DNA of 64,000 nucleotides from a virus (lineage: Duplodnaviria; Heunggongvirae; Uroviricota; Caudoviricetes), in IMG/VR virus record IMGVR_UViG_3300028914_000001, positions 29,489 to 93,488 of that record, one strand, 5' to 3'. Below the pieces are notes generated by a model. That model made no database searches. It was not told where the DNA came from and was given only the letters and a program-made list of their open reading frames with translations. Every line of letters starts with the position of its first letter. Within the stretch, counting starts at the first letter, position 1. The position numbers and the translations under genes are program-made. This document shows positions 29,362 to 47,972 of this stretch, piece after piece.

Positions 29362-29543
29362 TCCCATCTTTTTGATAGTTCATTAACCTTGTCAGCCATC
29401 TTCTGCTCATAATAGGCGGTAGATGACACACAGGCGTCAGGATACTTGTCCACCAGAGGCTGCAGGTCAGCTTCGTCGTAGACAGGGATAGAATCCTTCG
29501 TTCCGTAACCGTTAGGATATACGATGAATACTGGACTGGACAT
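29343..29543 (-). CDS. hypothetical protein (66 aa)
   Basis: GTAGGAGGAAT RBS followed by ATG inside the track ORF. Confidence 0.45.
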   Translation of the reverse strand: MSSPVFIVYPNGYGTKDSIPVYDEADLQPLVDKYPDACVSSTAYYEQKMADKVNELSKRWDKIKDG

Positions 29544-31401: not shown

Positions 31402-31515
31402 TTACTTGGAGTTCTTTTCCTTTCTCAGCTCATGGTTCTCTTTCAAGATGTCAATAAGCTTGCAGGTCAGGATTCCCATTAAAAATCCTACACAAACACC
31501 AATCAGTACAATCAT
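31402..31515 (-). CDS. tiny membrane protein (37 aa), coupled to the SPFH gene
   Basis: ATGA overlap with the SPFH stop; single TM helix. Confidence 0.4.
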   Translation of the reverse strand: MIVLIGVCVGFLMGILTCKLIDILKENHELRKEKNSK

Positions 31516-32459
31516 TCTTCCAACCTGCTCATGTTGATTCCCGAGAAGTTCGGCGTGATTGTGTTGGCTTCTGCGCCAGGGAACTTTCCGTTCCACCTTT
31601 CGAGACGGGCCATTGTTTCTTCATGCTTCCATGCGCTCTGTTGGATTGCATAGTTGGCTGCAATAGCCTTGTTCTTGGCAATCATAGCCTTAGCTTCGGC
31701 TTCGGCTTCCACGATGGTCGCCTGGGCGTTACGCTTAGCGATTTCGAGTTCGTTTTCGGCCTTGTTAAGAGCGTTACGGTAGGTGGCAGAGTCGGCCTGC
31801 AACTGGGCACGGGCGGTAACAACCTTCTTTTCGTTGATAGCCTTTTCGATTTCCACATCAGCCTTTGCAGTCTTTTCCTTCTGCGTCTTAATCATGGTCT
31901 CCTTAATCTGATTATCGAAGTCATCCGTCCAATCCCAGTTGGAAATGTTCACGTCCTGAATCGTAATCGGCATCTTGGCGCACTTGACTTCCATCATCCT
32001 CTTCAACTCGTCGGAAATCTTGTCGGTTTCCTTGGTCAAGTCGTAGATGGAGTACTTGCCGATGACAACCTTCAATGTGGCCTTCATGTTGGACTTGAAG
32101 AAGCTTTCCAATGAAGACTTTGTGTAGTTGCGGACGAAGTTTTCGGCTTCGTCTTCGTTGAACGCATAGATGATTGACATGGAAACGCCCACCGTCTGCA
32201 TGTCCTTAGTGATTGCACCGTCATCGCCCACGGCATAGGTGAAGTCATCCTTCTGCGGGGAGAGTTCGATTGTGGTTACACTCTGGACGACCGGAATCTT
32301 GAAGGTAACGCCGTTTCCACGGGGAATAGTGCCAGAAATCTTACCCAAGGTCTTGACGACGGCAACTTCGTTCGGTTCCACGTTCGTGAAAGAGAAGAGG
32401 GCGCCAACACCAAGTACGGCGATAACGGCGACGATGATGAATACTTTGAGCTTACTCAT
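31512..32459 (-). CDS. SPFH/band-7 (prohibitin/HflK/C-like) membrane protein
   Basis: N-terminal TM, PHB-like core and a long Ala/Glu/Lys coiled coil; AAAGGAAAACACA RBS. Confidence 0.75.
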   Translation of the reverse strand: MSKLKVFIIVAVIAVLGVGALFSFTNVEPNEVAVVKTLGKISGTIPRGNGVTFKIPVVQSVTTIELSPQKDDFTYAVGDDGAITKDMQTVGVSMSIIYAFNEDEAENFVRNYTKSSLESFFKSNMKATLKVVIGKYSIYDLTKETDKISDELKRMMEVKCAKMPITIQDVNISNWDWTDDFDNQIKETMIKTQKEKTAKADVEIEKAINEKKVVTARAQLQADSATYRNALNKAENELEIAKRNAQATIVEAEAEAKAMIAKNKAIAANYAIQQSAWKHEETMARLERWNGKFPGAEANTITPNFSGINMSRLEE

Positions 32460-32752: not shown

Positions 32753-32781
32753 AATATAGCACATTAAAAGTCGGCTGTCAA
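32753..32781 (-). promoter_or_regulatory. sigma70-type promoter
   Basis: TTGACA-N17-TATATT. Confidence 0.55.
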
Positions 32782-33122: not shown

Positions 33123-33491
33123 TTATCCCTTATCAGCCTCTGGTTTGAAACTGTATATAAGGGCGATATTGCCGATACGTTTCTTGAACTCGTCAAGCCC
33201 AACCCCGAGCTGCAATCTCGTGCGGTACGTGTTGAAACGGATGCTGCCGTCTTGCTCGGCAAACACGTCATCTGCCGGGATTGAAACCCATTTGCCGAAC
33301 GCCAGGTAAATCTGGCGGTGCATCATGTCGATAAATACGTCCCGACGGAAAAGGCTTTCGTGCCTCATCCTCTTGGCGACATCGACCATCGCACCGACAA
33401 TATTGTCGAACTTGCAGTTGGAGGTGTCCATCTTGGCACCAGCCCTCAGGTCTTTAAGTATTTCTTCATCAACCGCTTCTGAACTGCTCAT
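33123..33491 (-). CDS. hypothetical protein (122 aa)
   Basis: CGGAGTAAAT RBS. Confidence 0.55.
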   Translation of the reverse strand: MSSSEAVDEEILKDLRAGAKMDTSNCKFDNIVGAMVDVAKRMRHESLFRRDVFIDMMHRQIYLAFGKWVSIPADDVFAEQDGSIRFNTYRTRLQLGVGLDEFKKRIGNIALIYSFKPEADKG

Positions 33492-33493
33492 AT

Positions 33494-34687
33494 TTACTCC
33501 GATGCCTTGAAGTTATATACAGGCTTGATTGTTTCGACAATATCGCAACTGTCCTTGATGTTCTCGATGATTTCCTTTGCTGGCTTGTAAGCCATCGGGG
33601 ATTCATCCAAAGTGGATTTATTTACACATGTACTGTAAATGCCACGCATGGACTTCTGGTACGCTTCGAGCGAGATGCTTTCCTTCGCATGAGAGCGTGA
33701 CATCTTTCTTCCTGCTCCATGCGGTGCAGAGAAGTTCCAATCAGAGTTTCCCTTGCCCGTGCAAATAAGAGCCCCGTCCCTCATGTTCATAGGAATAATC
33801 AGGCGTTCGCCTTCCTGTGCGGATACAGCTCCCTTACGGAGAATCATGTGCTTCATGTCGATGTAATTATGCAAGGTGCAGAACTTGTCCACGACATGCA
33901 GACGGAGCGCCCTGACAATCTCTTCAAGCATCGCTTCACGGTTACGTGTTGCAAAGTCCTGTGCCAACGCCATGTCATGCAGATATCCGTCGAACGACTT
34001 GCCAGTGAGGTAAGACAGTTCCTTCGGGGGAGGGAAATGAGGGATGCTTGCCAACGCTGCGGGAAGCTCGTCTTCACGACCCTCACTCTTATACTTGGCT
34101 ATTATGGCACCACGCTGCTGAGTCAGGTCGTTGCATTCGTCGATTGCAACTCCCTGCCAGTAATCACAGGTTGCCAACCCAAGATGTCGGGAACCTGAGT
34201 GGATTACGATGTACAGGTTACCATGAGAATCCTTGTCGCATTCGCAGAAGTGATTGCCTCCGCCCAAACTTCCAAGCGACAACAACTCGGTATATTCCAT
34301 CTTCCCTTCCTTGTAGACAATCATATCCTCGATAGGAAAGTCCTTTGCCATCGAGTGCTTGCTTTCACGATGGGACTTCCCAGACGGAATCCTTTCACGG
34401 ATAACCTTGTCCAATTTATCAAAATCAACCGAACGGTCTTTCAACTTGGCAACAAGCATACCACACCCAATGTCCACCCCGACGAGATTAGGCACAATCT
34501 TGTCCTTAATCGTCATGGTAGTGCCAACGGTGCAGCCCTTCCCAGCATGCACATCGGGCATGATTCTAACCTGCATGTCCTTAGCCCAGCACTGACACAT
34601 CATGTTCAACAACTGTGTATATGCATCTGGGTCGATATTGTCGCTGAATACCTTGGCGGTATTAAACCTACCCTGTATATCAATCAT
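33494..34687 (-). CDS. rtcB: RtcB-family RNA 3'-phosphate/5'-OH ligase
   Basis: MPDVHAGKGCTVG, GGGNHFCE, HSGSRHLG and SAPHGAGR signature blocks; ATG at track residue 7. Confidence 0.9.
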   Translation of the reverse strand: MIDIQGRFNTAKVFSDNIDPDAYTQLLNMMCQCWAKDMQVRIMPDVHAGKGCTVGTTMTIKDKIVPNLVGVDIGCGMLVAKLKDRSVDFDKLDKVIRERIPSGKSHRESKHSMAKDFPIEDMIVYKEGKMEYTELLSLGSLGGGNHFCECDKDSHGNLYIVIHSGSRHLGLATCDYWQGVAIDECNDLTQQRGAIIAKYKSEGREDELPAALASIPHFPPPKELSYLTGKSFDGYLHDMALAQDFATRNREAMLEEIVRALRLHVVDKFCTLHNYIDMKHMILRKGAVSAQEGERLIIPMNMRDGALICTGKGNSDWNFSAPHGAGRKMSRSHAKESISLEAYQKSMRGIYSTCVNKSTLDESPMAYKPAKEIIENIKDSCDIVETIKPVYNFKASE

Positions 34688-34694
34688 AATAAAC

Positions 34695-35051
34695 CTATCT
34701 ACCAATCAATTCTTTTTTATAACCATAGGCAATATCAAATGCCTTACCCATCTCAATCGCCGCTCGGATAGCCTTCTTGATGTCATTATCCTTCACAACG
34801 CAGTCGTACAGATTTCCGAACGCAACTGGACTCGAATACTCCCGGTCACGAGTACGTATTTCACTCCACATGAGTGTATTGCCGTCATTAGTATCCTTGT
34901 CCTTGTAGAAAGACATGTTCAAAACGGTGTTATTGAACGTGATATTCAACATGCTACCGTCAGCAACTACTCCACAGTCAGGCAGATAGTGCATAGCGAA
35001 ATCAAGGTCATCCTTCTTGATTCGCAAATATTGAAGATTCCGTCGTGCCAT
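34695..35051 (-). CDS. hypothetical protein (118 aa) immediately upstream of rtcB
   Basis: GAAAAGGAATACT RBS; the track ORF N-terminus runs over the tRNA-like sequence. Confidence 0.5.
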   Translation of the reverse strand: MARRNLQYLRIKKDDLDFAMHYLPDCGVVADGSMLNITFNNTVLNMSFYKDKDTNDGNTLMWSEIRTRDREYSSPVAFGNLYDCVVKDNDIKKAIRAAIEMGKAFDIAYGYKKELIGR

Positions 35052-35071
35052 AGTATTCCTTTTCAAAAAGT

Positions 35072-35145
35072 TAATCGGGCAGGTGGGATTCGAACCCACA
35101 CTGAAGGGGGTTTAAACCCCATTCCTCTACCAGTTGGGTTACTAC
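35072..35145 (-). tRNA. tRNA-like gene (74 nt, anticodon UAA, Leu-type reading) with a weak D-arm
   Basis: 7-bp acceptor stem with one G-U; canonical GTGGG-TTCGAAT-CCCAC T-arm; anticodon loop TTTAAAC; D-stem pairs poorly. Confidence 0.45.
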
Positions 35146-35160
35146 CCGAACCAATTCAAT

Positions 35161-36309
35161 TTAGTCAGAAAGCAGACGCTTGATTCTGTCACGAGCCCGC
35201 ATGAAGTTTTCATGGTAGGTTCCGTTCAGATAAACAACATCTTCTGTGCAGTAGTGCTTACCGAGAATGCTCATCAAGACCTGATACTGCTTCTTCCTAT
35301 CTTCGAAGCTGTTCGTGAGGCAATCCCTGCTTCCGTCCTGCACCCAGCTATCTTTTTTCGGAGGCATAACGAAGATGAGGTCGTATTTCAGGAACTTCGC
35401 ATTGGCTTCGATAAGCTTATAGTCGTCTTCGGTGATGGCATACCTGTCATCCATCGAGTAATACTTAGCGTACATGAGCGTTGTCATTGCGTCACTGTCA
35501 CAGATGTTGACCTTATGCCAACTTGCCGAGTTGACTCTGTACTGCTCGTTAAGAAAACGAAGGTAGTCATTAAAGGTCAGCTTGGTATCATCAGGCTGCG
35601 GTTCCTTTCCGTTTTGAGCGGCGATGTAAGTGTGACCGTATTCCTCGGTGTACCCAACATCGAAGTATCTGGCAAGGTCTTTCGTGAGCGTGGACTTGCC
35701 TTCCGATGCCGTACCGATAATCAGGACACGCTTGGCGAACTGAGCCTTGAACTCATGCCCAATGATTTCGTCCCAATACTTCATCGGTTCCTTGCGTATC
35801 TTTGTTGCAGAAATCTGATTGAGCTCTCTCGGCAACAGATACACATTGGGGCCTTTACTGACCAACGACATGATTGCCTGTCTGTACGACGGTTCGCCAG
35901 TAAAGACAGTCGTTTTCTGAAGCAATTTCGTACACTTTCGCTTGCTGACATCAGCATTGCCGTACACGATTTCAGCGAGCTTATCGCTGAGAGCTTCCAA
36001 CCATTCAGACCATTTGTCCATGTAACCTGCAATGCCGATATCGTTATCCTTCATCATGACGACGTGAACAAGCGGGTCGCCTTCAAACATCTTCTTGATG
36101 ATTTCATAGCGACGTTCAATCGGAAGACCGATTCTCGTACCACGGTCGCCATCAAGCCCGCAAACGGCAATGATTGCACCCTTAGAGCAGAGCTTCTTCG
36201 CTGCCATTACGAGGTCAAGATGACCTGTATGCATCGGGCTGAAAGACCCGAGGACAACCCCGTATTCACGAGGGCCACCGCTGATTTGGTTAATCACGTC
36301 GTCAAGCAT
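35161..36309 (-). CDS. nadR: NadR-like bifunctional NMN adenylyltransferase/ribosylnicotinamide kinase (no HTH)
   Basis: N-terminal GSFSPMHTGHLDLV (HxGH nucleotidyltransferase motif); C-terminal Walker A GTASEGKST; GGAGG RBS. Confidence 0.75.
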   Translation of the reverse strand: MLDDVINQISGGPREYGVVLGSFSPMHTGHLDLVMAAKKLCSKGAIIAVCGLDGDRGTRIGLPIERRYEIIKKMFEGDPLVHVVMMKDNDIGIAGYMDKWSEWLEALSDKLAEIVYGNADVSKRKCTKLLQKTTVFTGEPSYRQAIMSLVSKGPNVYLLPRELNQISATKIRKEPMKYWDEIIGHEFKAQFAKRVLIIGTASEGKSTLTKDLARYFDVGYTEEYGHTYIAAQNGKEPQPDDTKLTFNDYLRFLNEQYRVNSASWHKVNICDSDAMTTLMYAKYYSMDDRYAITEDDYKLIEANAKFLKYDLIFVMPPKKDSWVQDGSRDCLTNSFEDRKKQYQVLMSILGKHYCTEDVVYLNGTYHENFMRARDRIKRLLSD

Positions 36310-36990
36310 TTAAGCCTCCACAGTGTCTGTTTCAAGCTTCTTCTCGGTATGAGACCATTCGACCCAACCGTAGATGGTGTTGATAAACCAGCAAACATAC
36401 ATCGCCACCATTGCCCATTCGCCAATGAGTGCGAAAGTCACGATGGAAATGCCATCAAGCACAAACCAGAAGAACCACTGTTCACGGTAGCAAGTGATAA
36501 TGAGAATCTGAGCAATGACCGTGAAGCTTATGCTCAACGCATCCATGTACGGAACTGCACCGTCAAGAACAAACTTGTCGAACGTACCGAAGCCAACGGT
36601 AAGAACGATTGTCGCAATAATCGAAATAACCCATGCCTTAGGAGAGAGTCGCTTCGGAATAACGTGCGTTCTGTCCTTTTCGAGCTGCTTGTACCATGCG
36701 TACAAACCATACACCATCGTCACGTTGTAGAAGATATATTCGCCAAATTCAAGCCACAGGCGGCTTTCCCAACAGATGTACATATACATGAAGTTGAAAA
36801 CGAAACTCGGTGCGTAAGCCCAGATGTTCTTCTGTGCAAACATCACGGTTGAAATCGTTCCCAGGAGTGCCGTCAGCATGGCAAACCACATTGCGGTATG
36901 GCCATCAGGCATCATGATGGTGAAGATGATGGTGAAGATGATGAACGCTGTCATGTACAGCGCACGGAATTTATTTTTGATAAAAGACAT
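36310..36990 (-). CDS. pnuC: PnuC nicotinamide riboside transporter
   Basis: Seven predicted TM helices, aromatic-rich, PnuC-like size; abuts nadR; AAAGAAGGCAAT RBS. Confidence 0.7.
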   Translation of the reverse strand: MSFIKNKFRALYMTAFIIFTIIFTIMMPDGHTAMWFAMLTALLGTISTVMFAQKNIWAYAPSFVFNFMYMYICWESRLWLEFGEYIFYNVTMVYGLYAWYKQLEKDRTHVIPKRLSPKAWVISIIATIVLTVGFGTFDKFVLDGAVPYMDALSISFTVIAQILIITCYREQWFFWFVLDGISIVTFALIGEWAMVAMYVCWFINTIYGWVEWSHTEKKLETDTVEA

Positions 36991-37028
36991 ATTGCCTTCT
37001 TTGTTGATGGTTTTTGTTGTTTGTGAAA

Positions 37029-37057
37029 AATATACTAACTTCATTCCCCTCTGTCAA
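37029..37057 (-). promoter_or_regulatory. sigma70-type promoter with the -35 in a CCCC/GGGG hairpin
   Basis: TTGACA-N17-TATATT. Confidence 0.55.
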
Positions 37058-39384: not shown

Positions 39385-40644
39385 ATGCCAAGCAACAAAA
39401 GACCTACACAAAACGACACCCCGGTCTGCAGCTTCTGCGGACGCCCGATTGAAGAAAACACCCTTGCCGTACGTGGCATGTCCCCGATAGGAGCATTCAT
39501 CTGCTCTGATTGCGCCAAGCTCGCCAGCAACATTATGGATGCAAGAGCAGCACAGCAACAGCAGAATGGTCGCAAGAAAGAGATGCACCTCCCGTCTCCT
39601 CATAAAATTAAAGAACACCTTGACACGTTCGTCATCGGACAGGACAAGGCCAAGGAAGCCCTTTCCATTGCGGTGTACAACCATTACAAGAGACTGGAAT
39701 ACAACGAAATCCGCTCCGACGATGATGTGGAAATCGAGAAGTCCAATGTCCTCCTCGTAGGCCCGACGGGCTGTGGAAAGACGATGCTTGCAAGGGCTAT
39801 CGCAAAGATGCTCAATGTCCCGTTCGCAATCGCCGATGCGACCGTCCTGACCGAAGCTGGCTATGTGGGCGAAGATGTGGACAGCATCATTTCCCGCCTC
39901 CTCCAAGCGGCAAACATGGACGAGAAGGAAGCCGAGCACGGCATCATCTTCCTCGACGAAATCGACAAGATTGCAAGGAAGAGTGCCAACCCGTCCATTA
40001 CCAGGGACGTATCGGGCGAAGGAGTACAGCAGGGCCTGTTGAAGCTCCTCGAAGGAACTGAGGCCAAAATCAATCCGCAGGGTGGCAGAAAGCATCCCGA
40101 ACAGAAACTGATTACCATTGACACCAGGAACATCCTCTTCATCTGCGGGGGAGCTTTCGAGGGCCTTGACGAAATCATCTCCGAACGTACTGAAAAAGGC
40201 GGCATGGGATTCGGTGCAGCCATCCACACGAGGGAAAAGAAAAGCCTCAGCGAACTGTTCGATAAGTGCGAACCTGATGACCTCGTGAGGTTCGGACTCA
40301 TGCCGGAACTCGTCGGCAGACTTCCCGTCACCGTCGCTCTTGACGAACTCGACGAGGACGCCCTCCGCAGAATCCTGACCGAACCGAAGAATGCCATCAT
40401 CAAGCAGTACACCAAGCTGCTCGAACTCGACGGAATCAAACTTTCGTTCGACGAGGAAGCGCTCGGGGAAATCGCCCGCCTGACCATCGAACGCCATACT
40501 GGTGCCCGTGGTCTCCGTTCCATCGTCGAAGAGTTGCTCCACGACGCAATGTTCATGGGTCCCGACAGCAAGGACAAGGAACTCCGCATCACGCAGGATA
40601 TGGTCATGGAACACTTCCATATTCAGGAAAGAAAGGCTTCCTAG
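39385..40644 (+). CDS. clpX: ClpX ATP-dependent Clp protease ATP-binding subunit
   Basis: N-terminal C4 zinc finger (CSFCGR...CSDCAK), Walker A GPTGCGKT, Walker [10 protein letters not shown], full-length ClpX homology. Confidence 0.95.
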
Positions 40645-46042: not shown

Positions 46043-46993
46043 TTACCATCCTTGGGTTGTAACCTGAAGCAGGTCATGAATGTTTTCCTTACCCGTGAAC
46101 GAGTAACGCTTGTCCAGAGCTGCGGTGCTCATGCGGGCTACCTGCATGTTCGGAACGTCGATGTACATCGTGGCACAGGTGATGTTCCCGTCAGCATCCT
46201 TCACATCCGTGTCGGAACCCTGGAACAGCGTATTGAAATCCTTGTCAGAGATATTGAGAGCCGTCTTCGGGTCCAACTGTTCTATGCCGAGGCAGTCGAA
46301 CGACATCACCTTAAAGGGAAGAATCGAGCGCATCATCATGAATTTCAGCCAGTTGATATTAGCCTTGATTTCATCACTGTGCTTTTCAAGCATGGCATGA
46401 CCACGACGCAAATCCTTGTAACCAAGGATAAGCACCTTCCTGTCGCTCAATGCAGGGAGGTCCTTCGCAGTCAAGATGCCCGCAATGGTATGGATTACAA
46501 CATTGTCGCCGAGCGTGTCGATGAAGTCGAAGTCTTCCTTGTTGCTGGAATCCGTAAGCGAGATGCCGATACCGTGAACGAGACCGTCGCCCACAATCTT
46601 GCAGATGATGTCCTTGTACGGTTTCAGGTGACGCTGGTTGATTGTGATGTTTGCGATTACACCCTGTTCCTTCAAGCGTTCGAGGAACCAGACGAGGTCA
46701 GGATGGGCCAAGGCGTTGCCACCACCGATAGCGCACTCGGTTCCTGAATGAAGGGTAGCAATCATCGGTTCCAATGCCCTGAGGTCGCCATGCTTGCCAT
46801 TTACCGTAGAGTTTTCATGGCAGTAAACGCATCCACCGTCGCACTGGTCGGTAATCTTGATGTCAAAGTTCTCGGGAAAATCATATGTGAAATGGTCGGC
46901 CATCGGGTCGAGCGTTTCCTTGATTTTGGTGCCATCCGAGTAGATGGTCACCATATGGTTGCCGTTTGTATATGTGTTAAGTATCGTTCGCAT
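46043..46993 (-). CDS. radical SAM enzyme (QueE-like?)
   Basis: CDGGCVYC (CxxxCxxC) cluster at residues 50-57 and GGGNALAHPDL glycine motif. Confidence 0.65.
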   Translation of the reverse strand: MRTILNTYTNGNHMVTIYSDGTKIKETLDPMADHFTYDFPENFDIKITDQCDGGCVYCHENSTVNGKHGDLRALEPMIATLHSGTECAIGGGNALAHPDLVWFLERLKEQGVIANITINQRHLKPYKDIICKIVGDGLVHGIGISLTDSSNKEDFDFIDTLGDNVVIHTIAGILTAKDLPALSDRKVLILGYKDLRRGHAMLEKHSDEIKANINWLKFMMMRSILPFKVMSFDCLGIEQLDPKTALNISDKDFNTLFQGSDTDVKDADGNITCATMYIDVPNMQVARMSTAALDKRYSFTGKENIHDLLQVTTQGW

Positions 46994-46994
46994 C

Positions 46995-47972
46995 TTAGTC
47001 TCGCCAACGGTTTCTCTTCATTTCTTCAATGAATCCTTCGGGGTAGTACAATTCGTTAGACATTCCATTGTACGTTCCCGACATGTGAATGATTTCCGAC
47101 GTAGCCTTGTCGTAAGTCTGGCATGCAACGCAATGTCCGCAACGACCCTTGTATGTCGGGCTATAACAGAAGCTGCACAGTTCGATAGGGAAATGACGGT
47201 AGTTCAAGTTACGGATAATATCCGCCTTTGTCAGGAACTGAAGGGGATAGCTGAACATGATATTCTTCTGCCCAACCACCGTCAACAGATGCTCCTGTGC
47301 GGCAAGGATATTGTGCGACCAGTTCCAGAAGTCGTCACCCTTGTGATATCCGAAGTGGTAGCAGGTCTTATTCCTGCCACACAGAGATACCATCGAGGCC
47401 ATAAAGGGTTGTTGGAAAAGAGACGGTTCCGAACCGTTCCAGTTATCCATATTCCCTTCAAGCTTAATGAAATCTCGTTTAGGTTCATAGTCGTACTTCT
47501 TAGCGAGATATTCGAGAATCTTTTCCTGAGAAGCAACTTCAGACAAATAGTGATGGGATGTGCCAAACTGTTCACACCGGAAGCTGAGCAAGCGTGGCTT
47601 GATACCCTTTTCGAGCAAATCAACGAGAATAAGCGTACTGTCAAGACCACCACTGAATACTACCGCATTGTTGATAATATCTTCAAACTTCTTTGTAATA
47701 GGCTTTACTTCATGGAGCCTATCGAAGACCTTCTCTGCGGCAGATTTGAATTGGTGGGTTTCCTCAGGCGATTCGACATCGCACAAAACTTCTTCGGGAG
47801 CGGCGTCGCACAATTCCGCTTCATCTTTCTTTTCATCCTCAGCGTCCACCTTCAATTCAGCCTTATACGGCTTCTTTTTGGCCACGAGAGCTCGCTTCAA
47901 CAGGGTGCCGTATTTCGGTTTAGACTTTGTTTCTGGACGAATCTTTTCGTTTGATTGTTTCTTTTTAGTCAT
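46995..47972 (-). CDS. queC: QueC-like PP-loop ATPase (7-cyano-7-deazaguanine synthase family) with a Lys-rich N-terminal extension of about 100 aa
   Basis: VVFSGGLDST PP-loop; C-terminal C-x8-C-x2-C-x2-C zinc motif (CYSPTYKGRCGHCVAC) as in QueC. Confidence 0.65.
   Translation of the reverse strand: MTKKKQSNEKIRPETKSKPKYGTLLKRALVAKKKPYKAELKVDAEDEKKDEAELCDAAPEEVLCDVESPEETHQFKSAAEKVFDRLHEVKPITKKFEDIINNAVVFSGGLDSTLILVDLLEKGIKPRLLSFRCEQFGTSHHYLSEVASQEKILEYLAKKYDYEPKRDFIKLEGNMDNWNGSEPSLFQQPFMASMVSLCGRNKTCYHFGYHKGDDFWNWSHNILAAQEHLLTVVGQKNIMFSYPLQFLTKADIIRNLNYRHFPIELCSFCYSPTYKGRCGHCVACQTYDKATSEIIHMSGTYNGMSNELYYPEGFIEEMKRNRWRD

Follow-up and report, generated by a model that had tools for sequence, protein, structure and literature searches.

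A short tRNA-Leu(UAA) ahead of an intact RtcB ligase in a predicted phage operon with NAD+ salvage genes

Large phages carry enzymes that counter host defences: the RNA ligase RtcB, tRNAs, the peptidyl-tRNA hydrolase domain PTH2 and NadR-type enzymes of NAD+ (nicotinamide adenine dinucleotide) metabolism all belong to the counter-defence equipment of jumbo phages, and phage tRNAs have been described as "supplemented" by RNA ligases in an RNA-repair counter-defence (PMC7824862). T4 provides another case, its Pnkp/Rnl1 pair repairing the tRNA-Lys cleaved by PrrC; it shares with the RNA-repair systems reconstructed for jumbo phages (PMC7824862) the logic that damage done to tRNA by host RNases is undone or circumvented. 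Phage T5 uses an altered substrate. Some defence nucleases attack class II tRNA-Tyr at its long variable loop; T5 tRNA-Tyr resists through its own variable loop (PMC13096335), escaping cleavage by retron-Eco7 and Septu (PMC11555353, PMC13096335). Here we describe a 64,000-nucleotide stretch (the window, positions 29,489–93,488 of the IMG/VR virus record IMGVR_UViG_3300028914_000001, Caudoviricetes), in which rtcB shares a predicted operon with a short tRNA-Leu(UAA), genes for the transporter PnuC and for NadR, and two genes for small proteins, p118 and p122 (Table 1). We regard it as moderately probable that this operon is a damage-repair cassette, sustaining translation once suicide-type effectors of the infected host are triggered, in which p118 is optional. 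The counter-defence role of phage RtcB, tRNAs, PTH2 and NadR is already known for large phages; what remains is mildly interesting, namely a lone, frozen, armless tRNA-Leu(UAA) lying ahead of rtcB in an operon with NAD+ salvage genes.

The operon runs PnuC, NadR, tRNA-Leu(UAA), p118, RtcB, p122, on the minus strand throughout, with gaps of 12 nt (NadR–tRNA), 23 nt (tRNA–p118), 7 nt (p118–RtcB) and 2 nt (RtcB–p122). No terminator-like site was found on the minus strand between 32750 and 37060, and the best promoter-like match of the operon region (TTGACA-17-TATATT) stands immediately upstream of PnuC. Because of this tight same-strand spacing, the lack of an internal terminator match and the promoter-like match before PnuC, minus-strand positions 33123–37057 are best read, as far as sequence can show, as one transcription unit. 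Other phage RtcB loci differ in two respects: in this one a single tRNA stands in place of an array, and PnuC and NadR open the operon. NadR matches NCBIfam TIGR01526 (E 2e-53), staying under the equivalog cut-off, and PnuC has a shorter start in relatives (226 aa). Through this PnuC/NadR opening (35161–37044), NAD+ salvage and an RNA-repair enzyme come together in one unit.

An earlier note on this DNA, made without database searches, had called the ligase an unambiguous RtcB, and profile searches bear it out. The protein matches PF01139 over profile positions 14–425 of 426 (E 7e-63; 213.7 bits, cut-off 27) and PHROG 1075 'tRNA splicing ligase' (E 1e-131). Aligned with five unrelated RtcBs from isolated phages, residues D45, H47, D72, C75, N145, H146, H163, H273, H323 and R327 are invariant, and the Pyrococcus horikoshii motifs MPDGH, DINCG, GNHF and HGAGR align with active-site residues. 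All metal ligands are kept, as is the nucleophilic His in HGAGR; a loss of the Cys/His ligands, which the note had said would refute its reading, was not found. By profile and active site RtcB is securely assigned as an intact ligase, with GTP-dependent 3′-phosphate/5′-OH ligation activity predicted. Its scores stay below two NCBIfam equivalog cut-offs (PRK09588, 139.6 bits against 407; the PrfH-coupled TIGR03073, 108.1 against 271.8), and by profile score it is a PF01139 family member outside those curated subfamilies.

Homologues of RtcB occur in 686 isolated phage records, the closest being those of Bcp1-like Bacillus phages (52% identical). Family and invariant active site are shared with the phage RtcBs of PHROG 1075, found in Herelleviridae (Bcp1), Bongovirus mycobacteriophages and jumbo phages. 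In contrast to T4 Pnkp/Rnl1, the RtcB here would join ends directly, with no end healing required. In one related locus (L025, 637–2769, minus strand) rtcB bears an in-frame insertion of ~920 bp exactly at the metal-binding cysteine (GVDIG/C...GN/CGM, slashes marking the junctions), with an intein-like look; several Bacillus phage RtcB matches are likewise in two pieces, across ~2.1 kb.

The 74-nt element between NadR and p118, previously noted as tRNA-like, proves to be a real tRNA gene: covariance model, anticodon and covariation place it firmly in a family of short tRNA-Leu genes carried by phages. It scores 47.2 bits against Rfam RF00005 (gathering threshold 29), and ARAGORN reads it as tRNA-Leu with anticodon TAA, the sole tRNA of the window. 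The variable loop is 5 nt long (UCAGU), the long variable arm of class II architecture being missing. Further traits are C1–G72, A73, A15–U48, a 3-bp D stem and no encoded CCA. Across 11 short phage tRNA-Leu sequences (alignment A6), pairing in the cloverleaf reaches 93% (slid controls, 41–48%), both sides have changed in 14 pairs, and D-stem pair 10–25 occurs as GC, UA, AU and CG in the 3-bp register. The 4-bp D-stem register drawn by Rfam, which contains two mismatches, was rejected: pair 12–23 forms in 0/11 sequences, and it is pair 10–25 of the 3-bp register that covaries. That 4-bp drawing depresses the scores of the short tRNA-Leu family and could make members look like pseudogenes.

A blastn search of isolated phages found annotated short tRNA-Leu genes, 82–86% identical, in FelixO1-like arrays and in the N4-like Pseudomonas phage ZC03. 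These ~77-nt genes (Erwinia phage phiEa21-4, phi63_307, ZC03) share with the tRNA here a CCCAA-YUGGYAGAGG D arm with a 3-bp stem, A15–U48, A73 and the 5-nt variable loop UCAGU. They lie in arrays of 10–26, encode CCA and have G1–U72, whereas the tRNA here is solitary, lacks CCA and has C1–G72 and an A10–A25 mismatch. In FelixO1-like phages the same scaffold bears the anticodons CAA, AAG and UAA, all leucine; since one scaffold carries three different leucine anticodons, we take it to be leucine-specific.

Charging by leucyl-tRNA synthetase (LeuRS) is compatible with this short form. The Escherichia coli enzyme requires A73, A15–U48, G18G19 and A20a, with A14 also in the set, and the variable arm is dispensable (PMC9976931). 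Read in the 3-bp D-stem register, the tRNA has all of these identity elements: A73, A14, A15–U48, G18G19 and A20a. Because the arm is reported to be dispensable for E. coli LeuRS, function as a tRNA-Leu reading UUA and UUG is likely despite its loss, and leucylation is predicted.

Other identities for this gene were considered and set aside. C1–G72 together with A73 resembles the acceptor identity of tRNA-Pro, whose G35, G36 and G15–C48 are absent, and the only cellular exact matches to the T arm plus 3′ acceptor strand are Planctomycetota tRNA-Pro(UGG). A tRNA-Pro derivative was rejected, as the D arm, A15–U48 and the phage relatives indicate leucine. A suppressor tRNA, read in an anticodon UUA register, requires a stem of 3 bp that contains two mismatches; UAA is backed by Rfam, by ARAGORN and by a compensatory change at pair 31–39. 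A remnant integration site does not fit a tRNA that is full length, covarying and inside an operon. In the bacterial rsr–yrlA–rtcBA operons, a tRNA-like Y RNA lies beside RtcB. Both loci place a tRNA-shaped RNA gene by rtcB; the one here folds as a full cloverleaf, anticodon arm included. A Y-RNA-like module was rejected: RF00005 alone passes Rfam in the window, no Y-RNA family of Rfam is matched, and a permissive scan of 34950–35300 adds nothing relevant. No Ro/TROVE protein is found among the 25 families listed of the 32 Pfam families matched by window open reading frames (ORFs).

To place the operon among its relatives, 18 related loci were gathered via p118, the tRNA sequence and RtcB. All 18 keep the order NadR–tRNA–RtcB; these three genes are the conserved core of the operon. 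Compared with its closest relatives the tRNA has 0 substitutions, although the flanking genes have a synonymous divergence (dS) of 0.5–1.0. In the more distant L019, L024, L029 and L021 pair 31–39 has undergone a compensatory change from G–C to A–U and loop positions 32 and 38 vary, while U33 and the UAA anticodon are always kept.

We examined 80 further IMG/VR loci with RtcB relatives (47–93% identical), 79 of them outside the lineage. tRNA genes lie within 6 kb of RtcB in 38/80, a descriptive count and not a measure of enrichment over the tRNA density of phage DNA; all 157 of these tRNAs (157/157) are on the RtcB strand. Sister RtcBs (63–65% identical, L043–L047) sit in or just after arrays of 11–16 co-oriented tRNAs, three of the five on contigs of 411–416 kb. 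The L047 array mixes long class II tRNA-Leu genes with short ones of 75–77 nt. A tRNA array likewise precedes RtcB in Mycobacterium phage Auspice; a position after tRNA genes is common to Auspice, many IMG/VR contigs and the locus here. Among the 80 loci, the combination of PnuC and NadR with a single tRNA and RtcB occurs only in this lineage.

These neighbourhoods bear on a plainer account, in which the tRNA merely supplies a host-rare codon and RtcB does unrelated housekeeping, such as phage transcript processing, their adjacency being inherited order. Codon usage is the classical explanation of phage tRNAs; the related loci all belong to one lineage, so adjacency could be historical; and no annotated tRNA lies within 3–4 kb of RtcB in Bacillus phage Bcp1, Phocaeicola phage PV4-TP1 or Caulobacter phage CcrSwift. 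We nevertheless consider the account unlikely. In a crude gene set of the window TTA makes up 5.4% of leucine codons (4.5 per 1000 codons), or 21% together with TTG. Because TTA is this rare in the phage's own genes, among the rarest of its leucine codons, there is little to gain and codon supply is a weak explanation for the tRNA. It also sits poorly with RtcB lying in or beside co-oriented arrays in many unrelated phage contigs and in Auspice, and with a tRNA sequence that is frozen while its surroundings drift.

Between the tRNA and rtcB lies p118, which the earlier note had correctly placed in the operon as a 118-aa protein with no archease signature. It is a real protein-coding gene, given a ratio of nonsynonymous to synonymous substitution (dN/dS) of 0.21–0.26 and an AlphaFold2 model with a predicted local distance difference test score (pLDDT) of 82.6. 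RtcB has a dN/dS of 0.07–0.09, and p118 evolves ~3 times faster than RtcB or NadR. There are no family matches in Pfam, PHROG, NCBIfam, PADLOC or PDB sequences. Looking for archease specifically, we found no Pfam match at E 0.01 (PF01951 considered), no PDB sequence match at E 10 with the family profile and no archease fold in the model.

The family is small. Only seven close clusters (63–95% identical) occur among 5.8 billion proteins. An exhaustive search with a hidden Markov model of the family, covering 1.8 billion cluster representatives (~15 billion proteins), gave nine matches: P0005 (the family itself), six distant true homologues (P0009–P0014) and two false ones. P0008 (1880 aa) and P0015 (749 aa) were rejected as homologues, being repeat proteins with scores inflated by 14 and 5 weak stretches, respectively. 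A scan of viral contigs with p118 patterns gave 216 pattern matches and 0 relatives.

From its position the note had proposed p118 as a new RtcB cofactor or specificity factor, an archease analogue that would activate RtcB or steer it to particular tRNAs. The arrangement invites the idea: p118 is immediately upstream of rtcB, 7 nt away on the same strand, is present in the window and in 11 related loci, and always co-occurs with p122 across rtcB, and archease–rtcB operons of archaea and some bacteria likewise have a small gene directly upstream of rtcB (PMC3973293). Its distribution makes this very improbable, and the cofactor proposal is not supported. Seven of the 18 related loci lack p118 (L007, L019, L021, L024, L025, L026 and L032), the tRNA there being followed after ~18 nt by rtcB, and their RtcBs are 92–94% identical to that of the window; RtcB of L007, without p118, is 93.7% identical, against 79.6% for L001, which has it. 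No p118 homologue occurs in any of the 79 RtcB loci outside the lineage, the distant homologues have no RtcB or tRNA beside them within the locus DNA examined, and the faster evolution of p118 also speaks against a partnership. The short bacterial RtcB of E. coli works without archease. Unlike archease, then, p118 has neither archease sequence nor fold similarity, is dispensable in close relatives and is found elsewhere without RtcB. From this comparison p118 appears to be an optional accessory that some members of the lineage carry as an insertion between tRNA and rtcB, and that RtcB does not need for its function. For annotation, the lesson is that a small ORF ahead of rtcB should not be named a cofactor by position alone.

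A different role for p118 may be read from its distant relatives. These homologues (36–50% identical) adjoin NAD synthase (L009), lie two genes after an AAA_28 (NadR-kinase-like) gene (L011, L012 and L013) or sit among small ORFs (L008 and L010). Over longer distances it is NAD metabolism, and not RtcB, that stays next to the p118 family, perhaps through inherited synteny. It is possible, and we put it forward tentatively, that p118, perhaps with p122, serves anti-defence or host takeover in this particular lineage, its gene occupying a permissive insertion point and being tied, if at all, to the NAD+ genes and not to RtcB. Its facultative presence, its faster evolution than its neighbours and the NAD synthase and AAA_28 kinase genes near its homologues favour such a role; set against it are the lack of a PADLOC or other family match, a NAD-gene neighbourhood that may reflect the shared ancestry of related phages, and a near-neutral isoelectric point (7.7), which does not make p118 an obvious DNA mimic. 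p122, also without family matches in Pfam, PHROG, NCBIfam or PADLOC, is present in every p118-bearing locus where the region is visible and absent from loci without p118. The most probable role of p118 is binding some host or phage protein.

Away from the operon, the PTH2 domain proposed by the note holds in profile searches. The protein matches PF01981 with E 9e-10, profile positions 4–115 aligning over residues 4–195, and archaeal Pth2 structures in two segments, an N-terminal RKDLxLxxGKLAAxVAH and a later DAxLTE. The domain is split after the first conserved segment by an insertion of ~85 residues that has no recognisable family. Its NCBIfam equivalog scores stay below cut-off (35.8 bits against 126 and 26.3 against 82) and cover the N-terminal 26 residues only. 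The gene is 19 kb away from the RtcB operon and might conceivably belong to the same system. Earlier work on large phages has described PTH2 and interpreted it as rescuing ribosomes once tRNAs are cleaved (PMC7824862). A role against GNAT-type tRNA-acetylating toxins is speculation, nothing in this analysis linking the two.

The related loci include contigs of 175 and 419 kb, namely IMGVR_UViG_3300021431_000077 and IMGVR_UViG_3300021400_000141, and come from rumen-type samples, and this is probably a large uncultured phage of the rumen. One relative (L019) was binned in a Bacteroidaceae metagenome-assembled genome from sheep reticulum; assignment to such a host is uncertain because of sigma-70-like promoters and Shine–Dalgarno-like sites. 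Two 11/12 matches to TTGACA-17-TATATT, at 32753–32781 and 37029–37057 (both minus strand), fall exactly in intergenic gaps, and AGGA motifs resembling Shine–Dalgarno sites lie upstream of p118; both features are unexpected for a Bacteroidota host. No near-identical DNA was found in isolated phages or E. coli.

A Band_7/SPFH gene lies 0–1.3 kb from RtcB here and in Auspice, CcrSwift and Proteus phage P59 (Pfam-confirmed). Band_7 as a general RtcB partner was rejected: it is seen in 3/6 isolated phages sampled and in this lineage, but within 6 kb of RtcB in only 5/80 IMG/VR loci. A Pfam scan of the 103 window ORFs also found ClpX, QueC-like, radical SAM, glycosyltransferase, UDP-galactopyranose mutase, LemA, TPM phosphatase, M29 peptidase and metallophosphoesterase families. 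No further RNA-repair enzyme (Pnkp, RtcA or ATP-dependent RNA ligase) was seen among the 25 listed of the 32 families matched. The radical-SAM and QueC-like proteins adjoin at 46043–47972 (minus strand) and may represent a 7-deazaguanine pathway that modifies DNA or tRNA. The opposite strand (39385–40644, plus) encodes a zinc-finger-bearing, ClpX-like AAA+ unfoldase that is kept in relatives.

Table 1 Features of the window and of compared loci (window positions unless a locus is named)
Feature	Position	Strand	Evidence and remarks
Sigma-70-like promoter match TTGACA-17-TATATT, upstream of PnuC	37029–37057	−	11/12 consensus positions; consensus match only
PnuC nicotinamide riboside transporter, first operon gene	36310–37044	−	PF04973 E 4.5e-38; TIGR01528 96.9 bits (cut-off 42.45)
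NadR-like nicotinamide mononucleotide adenylyltransferase and ribosylnicotinamide kinase	35161–36309	−	Pfam CTP_transf_like and AAA_28; PHROG 3462 E 8e-62
tRNA-Leu(UAA), 74 nt, no long variable arm	35075–35148	−	Rfam RF00005, ARAGORN
p118, facultative 118-aa protein	34695–35051	−	No family match
RtcB, 3′-phosphate/5′-OH RNA ligase, short bacterial/phage type	33494–34687	−	397 aa; PF01139, PHROG 1075
p122, 122-aa protein directly 3′ of RtcB	33123–33491	−	No family match
Band_7 protein, beyond p122 and two small ORFs	31512–32459	−	Pfam
PTH2-domain protein, 197 aa	13895–14488	−	PF01981 39.2 bits (cut-off 23)
Band_7/SPFH near RtcB in other loci	L039 4150–5049; L040 1737–2534; L041 5386–6324; L085 7570–8436		Pfam
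Distant p118 homologue neighbourhoods	L009 70–975; L011 5024–6327; L012; L013		NAD-metabolism genes

The damage-repair reading would work as follows. RtcB would act on RNA ends of the kind that anticodon nucleases, HEPN enzymes and other metal-independent RNases leave, a step we infer from the intact active site and the known enzymology of the family. The tRNA-Leu(UAA) would most likely be a spare decoder, or one that nucleases do not affect, rather than an added source for a rare codon. PnuC and NadR, going by family membership, would import nicotinamide riboside and rebuild NAD+, and p118 would be an optional, faster-evolving accessory in part of the lineage. The broader suggestion of the note, that the phage keeps its RNA and tRNA usable against RNA-cutting defences, fits both published work (PMC7824862) and the 38/80 RtcB loci with tRNAs nearby.

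Several points weigh against this reading. The operon role is predicted for a phage known from its sequence alone. All 18 related loci form one lineage (NadR 68–95% identical), so the gene order common to them does not testify independently to functional coupling, and the 38/80 count is descriptive, as stated. The tRNA has mismatches in the D stem (A10–A25) and the anticodon stem (U27–U43), and its C1–G72 pair is one usually seen in bacterial tRNA-Pro; it scores only moderately against Rfam, and its charging by LeuRS is a prediction. The role suggested for p118, finally, is drawn solely from negative evidence and a generic predicted fold.

A more specific form of the damage-repair reading is conceivable, though we hold it decidedly unlikely. 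The armless tRNA-Leu(UAA) would then be a nuclease-proof stand-in for a host class II tRNA-Leu cut in its variable arm or anticodon loop, RtcB repair and PnuC/NadR refilling of NAD+ would be joined in one anti-abortive-infection operon, and p118 and p122 would be lineage-specific effector inhibitors. The nearest parallel is T5 tRNA-Tyr, likewise a phage copy of a class II tRNA with an altered variable region; in the present case the variable arm is missing altogether and the specificity is for leucine, and the likeness is an analogy, not a demonstrated mechanism. By that analogy, the armless leucine tRNA could be an extreme form of the T5 variable-loop escape.

The short tRNA-Leu family thus raises the question of whether loss of the variable arm protects class II tRNAs from tRNases of the retron-Eco7 or Septu type. 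If the damage-repair reading is true, the operon would be a compact natural case of three routes by which a phage survives suicide defences: religation of RNA, an unrecognised tRNA and rebuilding of NAD+.

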